30,259 bases of DNA, taken from positions 1-30,259 of the IMG/VR virus record IMGVR_UViG_2718217795_000001; one strand, 5' to 3'. Below the pieces are notes generated by a model. That model was not told the DNA's origin. It ran no database searches and worked only from the letters and a program-made list of their open reading frames with translations. Below are positions 26,940 through 29,186 of the stretch, in pieces. This stretch comes from a virus. Taxonomy: Duplodnaviria; Heunggongvirae; Uroviricota; Caudoviricetes. Both the position numbers and the translations under genes were made by a program. Each line of letters starts with the position of its first letter. The first letter of the stretch is position 1.

Positions 26940-27449
26940 TCAAATCAGACCGAATGACGCGCCAATACCGCTCATGGTATCGACAACACTCGTCATTGCT
27001 GGATTGGTCTGCAAACGTGCATGCAGCGCCAGTGCCGACAAAGACAACATGCGAATACCGGAGTTAACGCTTTCAATCATGGTGTGCTTACGGGCAGAGG
27101 TCAGACGCTCATCAGAGACCGCGCCGCTCGCCAGTTCGCCGAGTTCCCGCATAGCACGCATGACGTAAGACTGTAATTTGTCTTTTGCCAGCTCGTTGAC
27201 CGGTACACATGGCAGGCAATGAATCTGAGCCAAAAAACCATCAACTAAGGCTGAGTCTTCGGTCAGGTCTGTCAGTAGCCATAACTCAGGTGGGGTGAGC
27301 TGGTGAGGCTGTTCCGGGTTGAGCTTGTTACGTAACGTCTGAACATTCATTCCCGCACGTTCGGCAAGCTTCGTCATGTTGTGACGTTGAGCGAAAGCAC
27401 GACACGCATCGTCATAATGGGGATGTTTGGAAATCTGAAAATCAAACAT
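26940..27449 (-). CDS. cII: CII-like lysogeny-establishment regulator, 169 aa (start corrected)
   Basis: Track start is a TTG; ATG at 27447-27449 with GAGGGA RBS gives MFDFQISKHPHYDDACRAFAQRHNM... and exactly 169 aa, the length I recall for 186 CII; second gene of the early operon as in 186. Confidence 0.7.
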   Translation of the reverse strand: MFDFQISKHPHYDDACRAFAQRHNMTKLAERAGMNVQTLRNKLNPEQPHQLTPPELWLLTDLTEDSALVDGFLAQIHCLPCVPVNELAKDKLQSYVMRAMRELGELASGAVSDERLTSARKHTMIESVNSGIRMLSLSALALHARLQTNPAMTSVVDTMSGIGASFGLI

Positions 27450-27481
27450 GGTTAAGTTCCCTCTAACTTGCATAATCAAAT

Positions 27482-27853
27482 TCAGTTAAGAGCGGTGCGC
27501 TGGTCGATGTAGCGACAATCAATCGCTTGTTGAGTCAGTTTGTCGCGCCATGCTTTTACGTTTACGAGGGTGCGGCTTCGTTTACCGGCTTCCTCTTTGT
27601 TGGAAAAGTCTTTGGTCGGAGCTTTAAGAAGAATGCCCTCATCAAGCCATTGCCAGACCAGACGCTCGCTAACGCCGCGAGTGGCAGCAAAGTCTTTCAC
27701 TGTCATGGTGTCGGACATTGCAGAGCGAATCATTGTCTGCAGGGCTGGCAGCATTGCTGTAACGATGGCGTCAAACTGAGTGGGGTCTAACAGCACAGTT
27801 TGATTTTGTGAGTTTTGCGAGTCGTGCATCGAGATTGATTTTGCATCTGACAT
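27482..27853 (-). CDS. Apl/Cox-like HTH excisionase/regulator, 123 aa
   Basis: First gene of the early lytic operon, divergent from cI; AGGAGA RBS; core MTVKDFAATRGVSERLVWQWLDEGIL is an HTH; has an unusual ~45-aa N-terminal extension. Confidence 0.55.
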   Translation of the reverse strand: MSDAKSISMHDSQNSQNQTVLLDPTQFDAIVTAMLPALQTMIRSAMSDTMTVKDFAATRGVSERLVWQWLDEGILLKAPTKDFSNKEEAGKRSRTLVNVKAWRDKLTQQAIDCRYIDQRTALN

Positions 27854-27863
27854 ATCGCATTAT
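27835..27863 (+). promoter_or_regulatory. Candidate lysogenic promoter (pL/Pc-like), rightward
   Basis: TTGATT-N17-CATTAT overlapping the apl-like start; would fire toward cI, face-to-face with the leftward promoter. Confidence 0.3.
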
Positions 27864-27916
27864 CTCCTGTTGTTTGAAATGTGGTGCAGTGGTGTGCATC
27901 TTGGTCGATAAGCGCC

Positions 27917-27945
27917 ACTATAGATCGTAAAAAGTTATCTGTAAA
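27917..27945 (-). promoter_or_regulatory. Early lytic promoter (pR/Pe-like), leftward
   Basis: Minus strand reads TTTACA-N17-TATAGT (plus 27940-27945 and 27917-27922), ~55 nt upstream of the apl-like start. Confidence 0.6.
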
Positions 27946-27965
27946 CACCCATAAAATTATCTGTA
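27922..27965. repeat. Direct repeats TTATCTGTA (x2) plus degenerate AGATCGTAA over the lytic promoter: candidate CI operators
   Basis: TTATCTGTA at 27935-27943 (overlapping the -35) and 27957-27965, 22 bp apart; related AGATCGTAA at 27922-27930 next to the -10. Confidence 0.5.
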
Positions 27966-27974
27966 GGGGTTTTT

Positions 27975-28838
27975 ATGAGTTCTGAACTCGATGTTCAGTG
28001 GCGTATAGGTGCATCAAATGGCGTGTTAGAGCGCGTAATGTCAGCCTATGGCGTCAAGATGCAAAAGGATTTAGCTGACCTGTTGGGCATCGCTAAACAC
28101 AGCGTTAGTGGCTGGGTTCAACGCGATGCAATACCCGGCAATGTCATAGTTAGGTGTTGTCTTGATACTGGTGCTGATATCAATTGGCTTGTAAGTGGTG
28201 AGCTTGCAAATGCAAAACATGAGCGAGTCGGTTGCAAGCTAAAGGGCAAAGAACTCTATGACGAGATCATGACGAACGGGGGCAAAACCGTTTTGCGCAG
28301 AATTCTTGATGCTTATGGGTTTACGATGCAAAAAGAGCTTGGTGATTTATTGGGTATTTCTTCCGGCACTATAAGCACTTGGGTCAGGCGTGACTTTTTC
28401 CCGGGCGATGTGGTGGTGACCTGCGCACTTGACACTGGCGTTTCGTTGGAGTGGCTTTCTACAGGCAAAGGCAAGATGCGAGAAGGCAGGGAAAGTGAAT
28501 CTCTTAGCGCCTTAACAGTAAGAAAATGTCGCCTTGAAGCTGGCGAGCTTAAAGATATTGGGCGTTGGACTCCAGACCTTACAATGGTTCCTGAAAACAT
28601 TGATGAATTGATCTTTATTGATGGAGTAGGCGCATCTTGGCTTGTTGATTGTTCTAACTCAAAGATCGGTAATGGTCGTTGGCTTATTGGCATTGATGGT
28701 GCGCTCGATGTTTTTGATGTCATCAGGTTACCAGGTGGAAAGGTCAGGCTTTCAAATAAGTCTGCGGAGTTTGAATGTAATCTTTCAGACATCACACCAT
28801 CAGGTGCAGTGATTTTTACTTTGGAAAAGCATGTTTAA
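27975..28838 (+). CDS. cI: CI-type immunity repressor with tandemly duplicated N-terminal HTH domain, 287 aa
   Basis: Divergent from the early operon; residues 17-75 and 106-164 are ~50% identical copies of a 186-CI-like HTH module; distinct C-terminal domain. Confidence 0.7.
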   Translation: MSSELDVQWRIGASNGVLERVMSAYGVKMQKDLADLLGIAKHSVSGWVQRDAIPGNVIVRCCLDTGADINWLVSGELANAKHERVGCKLKGKELYDEIMTNGGKTVLRRILDAYGFTMQKELGDLLGISSGTISTWVRRDFFPGDVVVTCALDTGVSLEWLSTGKGKMREGRESESLSALTVRKCRLEAGELKDIGRWTPDLTMVPENIDELIFIDGVGASWLVDCSNSKIGNGRWLIGIDGALDVFDVIRLPGGKVRLSNKSAEFECNLSDITPSGAVIFTLEKHV

Positions 28839-28847
28839 GGAGCAGTT

Positions 28848-29186
28848 ATGAAAAAGTTATTATTTTTGATGGCCGGTATCGCGCTTTCTTCCTCAGCCTT
28901 AGCCGCTGAGAAATTTAAAGAGATTGATAGTAAATCTCTTGGTGATAAGTGGCCGCTTACCTTTGAGCATGCAAAAGTATCTTGTGTAAACAGTCACTAC
29001 GTTTTTGTTTATGACACTGACACGGATGAACGCTACCCCTTAAGCGGCATGGCTAAGAACGCCGTCAAGTCTGGAAAAATGGAAGGGCGAGATTTAAAAG
29101 AAGTTCTAAAAAAAGACCCTAACGATCCATTAGAACGAGCTGATATTGCTCCTGTTTTCAGTGAAGCCATAGCGCTTTGTGAATAA
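28848..29186 (+). CDS. Secreted small protein (moron) between cI and int, 112 aa
   Basis: AAGGAG RBS; N-terminal signal peptide MKKLLFLMAGIALSSSALA-AEK with AxA cleavage site; AT-richer than the backbone. Confidence 0.65.
   Translation: MKKLLFLMAGIALSSSALAAEKFKEIDSKSLGDKWPLTFEHAKVSCVNSHYVFVYDTDTDERYPLSGMAKNAVKSGKMEGRDLKEVLKKDPNDPLERADIAPVFSEAIALCE

Follow-up and report, generated by a model that had tools for sequence, protein, structure and literature searches.

Background

The lysis-lysogeny switch of phage 186 serves as a principal model of transcriptional interference and of repressor wheels by which DNA is wrapped and looped, its CI protein being assembled into a 14-mer wheel. An odd feature of this system is that a single helix-turn-helix (HTH) domain reads two classes of operators. 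The face-to-face arrangement of the 186 promoters pR and pL goes back to Dodd et al. 1990, as far as this work is cited in PMC3675496. CI of 186 binds three operators at pR, located two helical turns apart, and the distal sites FL and FR, which are separated by 678 bp (PMC3675496). The pR operators are inverted repeats (PMC1904263). P2 and W-phi, on the other hand, have repressors with operators of their own (PMC1904263; PMC3448106). We analyzed the putative switch region in a stretch of 30,259 nucleotides of viral DNA (IMG/VR record IMGVR_UViG_2718217795_000001), here referred to as the window. The interval in question is a gap of 121 bp separating two divergent genes, an apl-like gene on the minus strand (27482..27853) and the repressor gene cI on the plus strand (27975..28838).

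A profile search of the window proteins identified the stretch as an arm of a P2/186-like prophage. Judged from its sequence, the region is probably the core of a lysis-lysogeny switch of the phage 186 type (Eganvirus, PSP3 immunity group) carried by a prophage of Enterobacter vonholyi. For the comparisons 104 related loci were used, and pR could be anchored in 94 of them. The loci were grouped into immunity types according to the first HTH domain of CI (HTH1), of which at least eight types were found. The type of the window is here named type A.

Putative convergent promoters pR and pL

Two promoter-like sequences facing each other were found in the region, as the preliminary description of this DNA had proposed. 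The leftward one, here referred to as pR, is located on the minus strand (27917..27945) and consists of the -35 hexamer TTTACA (27945..27940), a 17-nt spacer and the -10 hexamer TATAGT (27922..27917). It matched the consensus in 10 of 12 positions and was the sole promoter-like match in a consensus scan of 27300-28300. From a predicted start at ~27910 it would transcribe into the apl-like gene. The rightward one, pL, is located on the plus strand (27835..27863) with TTGATT (27835-27840) and CATTAT (27858-27863), spaced by 17 nt as well. This sequence straddles the start codon of the apl-like gene at 27853 and points toward cI: the -35 lies within apl codons 5-6 and the start codon inside the spacer. 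With 8 of 12 matching positions it was missed by the consensus scan. Transcription from the predicted pL start at ~27870 would run across pR into cI, the two predicted starts being ~40 bp apart.

Both promoter-like sequences were highly conserved. The pattern TTTACA-N17-TA...T was present in all 94 anchored loci, and so was TTGNNN-N10-CAT-N4-NANNNT at the pL offset; the distance of ~40 bp between the predicted starts was found in 90 of them. The -35 hexamer TTTACA is common to types A-G, type H having TTGCAA. In addition, the pL hexamers stay in place despite divergent N-termini of the Apl proteins, which begin with MSDAKSI, MQTEKSN, MHTENSN, MTPQIAI, MNRNFSM or, in 186, MASEIAI.

The pR-like site occupies the same relative position as the annotated pR of 186 (TTTACT-N17-TATATT). 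The offset of pL is identical to that of the annotated 186 pL (TTGCGA-N17-CATGAT), since in both the -10 is located 5-10 nt upstream of the apl ATG and the -35 13-18 nt inside the gene. Even the consensus match is the same, 8 of 12 in both. Only the predicted start separation differed, with about 62-63 bp in 186 and about 40 bp in the window. Because the promoter positions are homologous to those of 186 pR and pL, a convergent architecture of the 186 type is very probable; the transcription starts are predicted ones.

Between the predicted pL and pR starts, direct repeats of GTGCA were observed 10 bp apart (27884..27898, plus strand), and GTGCA(T/G) motifs also occur at 27824-27830 and 27841-27846. 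In the same interval another locus (L023) carries three copies of CGTGC(A/T)T with 10-bp spacing. These motifs are candidate binding sites of the Apl-like protein; alternatively, CI might bind them weakly over pL.

Direct repeats at pR

The 12-nt sequence AARTTATCTGTA was found twice, at 27932-27943 and 27954-27965. Two direct repeats with a distance of two helical turns had been reported in the preliminary description, and the spacing is indeed 22 bp. Repeat 1 (27932..27943, plus; AAGTTATCTGTA) overlaps the spacer of pR as well as four -35 bases and would be part of a candidate operator O1. Repeat 2 (27954..27965, plus; AAATTATCTGTA) is located upstream of the -35, 10 nt before the cI ATG and adjoining the cI ribosome-binding site, and would be part of a candidate operator O2. 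To call the promoter covered by the repeats, as the preliminary description did, is thus an overstatement. Within the repeats an exact 9-nt core, TTATCTGTA, is present at 27935-27943 and 27957-27965; the similarity extends to 13 nt, of which 12 are identical (27931-27943 / 27953-27965). Most relatives carry TTTTCTGTA in place of TTATCTGTA in repeat 1.

An exact repeat of 9 nt at a lag of 15-26 is hardly expected by chance (p ~0.0005; 2000 dinucleotide shuffles of 61 nt reaching from the -10 to the ATG of cI). Elsewhere in the window TTATCTGTA was not enriched, with 4 matches versus 3.6 expected at no more than one mismatch, and distal copies of the motif at the positions resembling FL and FR were not found beyond chance (34 in the window versus 26 expected). 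A degenerate third copy, which had been described as well, could not be recovered. The 121-bp intergenic region contained none at ≤1/9 or ≤3/12 mismatches, and successive 22-bp units followed leftward by eye gave only ~5 of 22 matches. Partial similarity was highest for TTATCTCCT (27860-27868), which is the region of the apl ribosome-binding site and the pL -10; phages of other immunity types have the identical sequence there.

The phase of 22 bp fits the geometry of 186 CI, with its three pR operators two turns apart bound by adjacent wheel dimers. We rather favor the view that the repeats are immunity-specific determinants of two adjacent candidate CI operators in two-turn phase. The Apl-like protein was considered as a binder of the repeats as well and was rejected, because apl is ~97-100% identical across types A, B and H, the repeats of which differ.

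Immunity types and recombination boundary

Comparison of the window with type B (phage Midge) and type H (locus L075) divided the region into three parts. Identity was 93-100% over 27497-27916, 30-50% from 27917 to ~28240 and mostly 57-87% over the remainder of cI. A sharp recombination boundary (27917-27930) divides pR, its -10 being on one side and its -35 on the other. Thus the conserved block comprises apl and pL, and the variable block comprises the pR spacer, both repeats and HTH1. From the drop in identity across 27917-~28240 it follows that the repeats and HTH1 form one immunity block. All 47 unique operator regions were paired with their own HTH1 type.

Phased repeats were present in several of the other types. 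Type B carries AAATCGA...TGAGT and type D AAATCGC, both at a lag of 21 (p=0.01-0.02), type C carries AAATT(T/C)TTGTTG at a lag of 18 (p=0.002) and, by inspection, type H carries TTAATTT at a lag of 21. In types A, C and H (the latter judged by eye) one repeat abuts the -35 and its partner lies upstream. The best-scoring unit of types B and D was found further left, beside the -10 and again just past the -35.

Domain composition of CI

The CI protein of the window (287 aa) matched PF07022 in two stretches and PF16452 in a Pfam search. Residues 105-280 matched the crystal structure of 186 CI (2FJR, E=8e-21). An AlphaFold2 model predicted two five-helix HTH domains, here named HTH1 (residues 17-74) and HTH2 (residues 92-163), with disordered linkers. 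The C-terminal beta domain of the model (residues 182-284) resembled the wheel domain of 186 CI (2FKD) with a template modelling (TM) score of 0.88 and a root-mean-square deviation of 1.8 Å. HTH1 and HTH2 are 53% identical and, on account of this identity, have arisen by internal duplication. Nilsson et al. 2011 described CI of PsP3 as having a longer C-terminal domain (PMC3448106).

HTH1 is variable between immunity types. The recognition helices carry KHSVSGW in HTH1 and SGTISTW in HTH2. The recognition helix of HTH2 (consensus ISSGTISTWVRRD) was nearly invariant, with conservative substitutions only, among 13 representative CI proteins of types A-G. A conserved A(G/A)ATCG beside the pR -10 was considered as a half-site of HTH2; this was unsupported, as the motif is absent in types F and G though HTH2 is unchanged there. 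The model was uninformative as to a pseudo-dimer of HTH1 and HTH2.

Proteins homologous to this CI are widespread. In total 837 were found at E≤1e-5, mostly annotated as 'phage repressor protein CI', and hundreds of clusters came from Klebsiella, Enterobacter, Salmonella, E. coli, Kosakonia and Pantoea. A locus of Kluyvera sichuanensis (L024) carries a CI with a single HTH (209 aa) and an intergenic region of 94 bp with the same pL-like offset. It may resemble the state before the duplication.

FL/FR-like flanking sites, putative pE and CII site

At the junction of the apl stop and the cII start, abutting the apl stop, a palindrome AACTTG-CATAAT-CAAATT is located (27465..27482, plus). It was kept across immunity types and is perfect in PSP3 and SW9 (AACTTG-CAAAAT-CAAGTT). 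The same position is occupied by FR in 186 (ATTCAC-ATAAA-GTGAAT). The centre of the palindrome, CATAAT (27471-27476), is likely the -10 of pE. For 186, the annotated pE extent and the sequence likewise suggest that the FR centre (CATAAA) is likely read as the pE -10. Upstream of pE a homologue of the CII-binding site, ATGTTTG-N13-CAAACAT, was found (27423..27449, plus), which overlaps the cII start (ATG 27449..27447 on the minus strand). With the 186 segment that bears the annotation CII site/pE it shares 92% identity, and CATAAT lies 20 nt downstream of its repeat as in 186. The true start of cII is probably this ATG, giving a protein of 169 aa as in 186, and not the TTG at 27479 reported by the open reading frame finder.

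A second site, the 13-mer CTTGCAAATGCAA (28203..28215, plus), is located inside cI codons 77-81, which encode the linker between HTH1 and HTH2. Together with 27467-27479 it makes up a pair of matched 13-mers of the form CTTGCAWAWKCAA, 736 bp apart. This degenerate pattern was present twice in 64 of the 104 loci versus ~0.0009 expected per locus, and in 16 representative loci scanned the matches fell at the apl/cII junction and inside cI. In type B the cI copy is on the opposite strand and the encoded peptide differs.

Codon entropy was determined across 81 unique cI sequences. The mean normalised value of the 163 conserved degenerate codons tested was 0.76. N79 was the sole synonymous site with zero entropy and A78 had the lowest value above zero (0.13), so that the FL-like site shows the strongest synonymous-site constraint in cI. 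The constraint on this site acts at the DNA level and not on the protein. The DNA-level constraint and the matched pair of 13-mers lead to the conclusion that the switch has flanking sites resembling FL and FR; by the precedent of 186 they would be bound by CI.

The FL-like site was also inspected as an internal promoter and rejected, TTGCAA having no usable -10 on either strand. In the same linker coding region a perfect 9-nt inverted repeat, AGCTTGCAA / TTGCAAGCT, was observed with 22 nt between the arms (28201-28240). Its second arm is specific to type A relatives and might represent another FL-like site at a distance of one operator phase.

Alternative explanations

Three other explanations were considered. 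According to one of them the mechanism is of the P2 type, with a repressor dimer reading the two TTATCTGTA copies as direct half-sites 22 bp apart and with neither a wheel nor distal sites. The operators O1 and O2 of P2 flank the -10 of Pe, and in this respect the window differs, its repeats being located at and upstream of the -35. Moreover, the sites resembling FL and FR are conserved in the flanks. What speaks for P2 is that the half-sites of its C repressor are direct repeats with 22 nt from centre to centre, the figure found in the window, and that Pe and Pc are convergent as well (PMC1904263). The preliminary description had drawn this analogy. It does not extend to the proteins, since the repressor is no homologue of the P2 C protein of ~100 aa but a CI of the 186 type with two PF07022 stretches and the 186 C-terminal PF16452, and since cII and the CII site/pE, which P2-type switches are without (PMC1904263), are present. 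We consider this explanation highly improbable. Hardly more credit can be given to the proposal that TTGATT-N17-CATTAT is no functional promoter and is conserved due to apl coding and the ribosome-binding site. In this case cI transcription would depend solely on pE, which requires CII, or on a weak promoter closer to cI, e.g. TAAAAA-N18-TAAAAT at ~27928-27957. The match of pL is indeed poor and was unreported by the scan, its -10 overlaps the spacer of the apl ribosome-binding site and its -35 overlaps apl codons, and in type A an alternative plus-strand match of 8/12 exists inside the pR region. However, the annotated pL of 186 (switch: Dodd et al. 1990, as cited in PMC3675496) is no better and has the identical offset, TTG and NANNNT are kept at this offset despite different Apl N-termini, the alternative near cI is absent in other immunity types, and a prophage needs a maintenance promoter that is independent of CII.

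More weight has to be given to the explanation that the convergent promoters are real and the TTATCTGTA repeats incidental, e.g. an old local duplication or an AT-rich sequence resembling an UP element. CI would then contact other bases, such as the invariant flanks, A(G/A)ATCG beside the -10 or pseudo-palindromes like AGATCG-N7-TTATCT. Several observations point this way and weigh at the same time against the repeats as operators. Substitutions within type A fall inside the repeats (TT[AT][TC]CTGTA, TTAT[CA]T[GA]TA), and AAACACCCATAAA beside them does not vary; for the most constrained bases of an operator another pattern would be expected. In the sister type A' (L088/L089) the recognition helix of HTH1 is the same and no second copy reached significance (p 0.6), and types E and F were without a significant phased repeat in the same shuffle test. 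Types D, F and G look palindromic rather than direct, with the inverted repeats ATCGCAAATGCGAT, ATACACAAATGTAT and ATCCATATGGAT in the pR spacer, and the pR operators of 186 are inverted as well (PMC1904263). Finally, types A-E have A(G/A)ATCG immediately next to the -10. Against an incidental origin stand the low chance probability of the 9-nt repeat, the phased repeats that several other immunity types independently show at this place, and a phase of 21-22 bp which is that of the 186 operators (PMC3675496). Altogether we regard incidental repeats as unlikely, though well worth keeping in mind.

Further points limit the interpretation as a 186-type switch with HTH1-read repeats. The consensus match of pR taken alone is not above chance, with 1 found versus 1.0 +/- 0.9 in shuffles. 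The co-variation of HTH1 and repeats may reflect linkage alone, as they are physically adjacent, and the assignment of HTH1 and HTH2 to different classes of sites relies on which parts vary together. The AlphaFold2 model gives no confident geometry between the domains (predicted TM score 0.40). In the literature searched we found neither a transcription or binding study of this switch type nor a paper dealing with a tandem-HTH CI or experimentally with this switch.

Gene layout and related phages

The apl-like gene encodes a protein of 123 aa. It comes first in the lytic operon and has a good ribosome-binding site (AGGAG) upstream of its ATG. The protein consists of a Cox/Apl-like HTH core (~residues 48-110) and an N-terminal extension of 45 aa. 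Its best family was phrog_3554 (unknown function). A weak match to phrog_575 ('Cox-like excisionase and repressor') was obtained for residues 48-110 (E=1.6e-4), and in a single comparison the HTH segment matched 186 Apl with E=5e-5. Neither Pfam nor a sequence search of the PDB gave a match, and the Apl counterpart of PsP3 was described by Nilsson et al. 2011 as a singleton without detectable domains (PMC3448106). These similarities, together with synteny, weakly suggest an Apl/Cox-like product, putatively an excisionase or a repressor of pL/pR.

The apl-like gene is followed by genes for a CII homologue (PF06892, E=8.5e-48), a DUF5347 and a DUF2732 protein, a DksA/TraR zinc-finger protein and a replication protein. 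On the other side, cI is followed by a DUF2511 gene (28848-29186) and the integrase gene. The DUF2511 protein has an apparent signal peptide (MKKLLFLMAGIALSSSALAAE). Its gene is presumably co-transcribed from pL in the lysogen and may be a lysogenic-conversion gene. No RNA family was detected in an Rfam scan of the whole window and no terminator in a scan of 27300-28300.

A protein 100% identical to the CI is present in Enterobacter vonholyi E13. The closest phage records shared 75-84% DNA identity at 97% query coverage and fell into three groups: Escherichia phage vB_EcoM-613R3, Salmonella phage SEN1 and Salmonella phage PSP3; Klebsiella phage RCIP0057 and Escherichia phage Midge; and the Salmonella phages SW9, which is of type C, and SI22.

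Proposed mechanism and significance

On the model of 186, the switch would operate as follows. After infection pR would drive apl-cII and the replication genes. CII would then activate pE, and transcription from there would cross apl in antisense direction and enter cI. Lysogens would keep up the expression of cI, the DUF2511 gene and int through the weak pL. As in 186, pR activity would depress pL by transcriptional interference. CI bound at O1 (spacer and -35) and O2 (upstream of the -35) would block pR and thereby relieve pL of this interference. The repeats would be in the two-helical-turn phase used by neighbouring DNA-binding units of a 186-type CI wheel and would not act as half-sites in the style of P2 C. 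By occupying both 13-mers, one at the FR and one at the FL position, a CI oligomer would loop the DNA and repress pE, as proposed for 186.

A division of labour between the two HTH domains is conceivable but rather doubtful. CI proteins of the PSP3 type might split the two recognition tasks which 186 CI performs with its single HTH. The variable and exchangeable HTH1 would read the variable repeats near pR and as the sole determinant set immunity. The invariant HTH2 would read the conserved CTTGCAWAWKCAA sites at the positions of 186 FL and FR, and perhaps weak sites at pL, and so would bring about looping and the control of pE and pL.

The PSP3-type region is a common natural variant of the 186 switch, with a two-headed repressor and a promoter gap shorter by about two turns. 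If the division between the domains were true, it would offer a clean system separating operator recognition from looping. Immunity types would diversify by the exchange of a small cassette with its boundary inside a promoter. A new immunity could arise by a swap of ~300 bp, comprising half of pR and one protein domain, the long-range architecture remaining fixed. Superinfection immunity among P2/186-like prophages could then be predicted better as well. Should this model fail, the region would be an unstudied homologue of a well-understood switch.

Comparison with known systems

The window shares with 186 the gene order int-cI / apl-cII and, as predicted, the face-to-face strong pR and weak pL with the same offset of pL to the apl ATG. 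Both have a CII site, a palindrome at the apl/cII junction (the FR position) whose centre, as read here, holds the pE -10, and, about 270-300 bp into cI, a further matching site (the FL position). The modelled C-terminal domain of CI is of the wheel-forming fold, and the candidate sites next to pR are in two-turn phase.

There are differences to 186 as well. CI of the window has two HTH domains and 287 aa compared with 192 aa in 186. Next to pR two clear direct repeats are present instead of three inverted repeats, and the predicted start gap is ~22 bp shorter. The flanking sites are CTTGCAWAWKCAA in the window and ATTCAC-N5-GTGAAT in 186. The Apl-like protein, with its 123 aa and its N-terminal extension of 45 aa, is only weakly similar to Apl. 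Furthermore, 186 has no gene in the cI-int interval where the window carries the additional DUF2511 gene.

PSP3, SEN1 and vB_EcoM-613R3 belong to the same immunity type as the window. Their CI proteins are 85% identical to that of the window and share its HTH1. Between the genes the sequence is nearly identical too, with both promoters and, apart from 1-2 substitutions, both repeats. These phages are known as sequence records, and an experimental analysis of their switch was not found.

The arrangement of convergent early and lysogenic promoters is shared with Pe and Pc of P2 and W-phi (PMC1904263; PMC3448106). The targets of the P2 repressor are directly repeated with 22 nt from centre to centre (PMC1904263), like the repeats of the window with their 22 bp, a resemblance of layout only. 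In contrast to the window, the C repressors of P2 and W-phi are small (~100 aa) and unrelated, and there is no cII/pE and no distal site (PMC1904263). As judged by sequence comparison, the region has most of the features of the 186-type family, and because the repressor family differs and cII is present, it is not of the P2 type.

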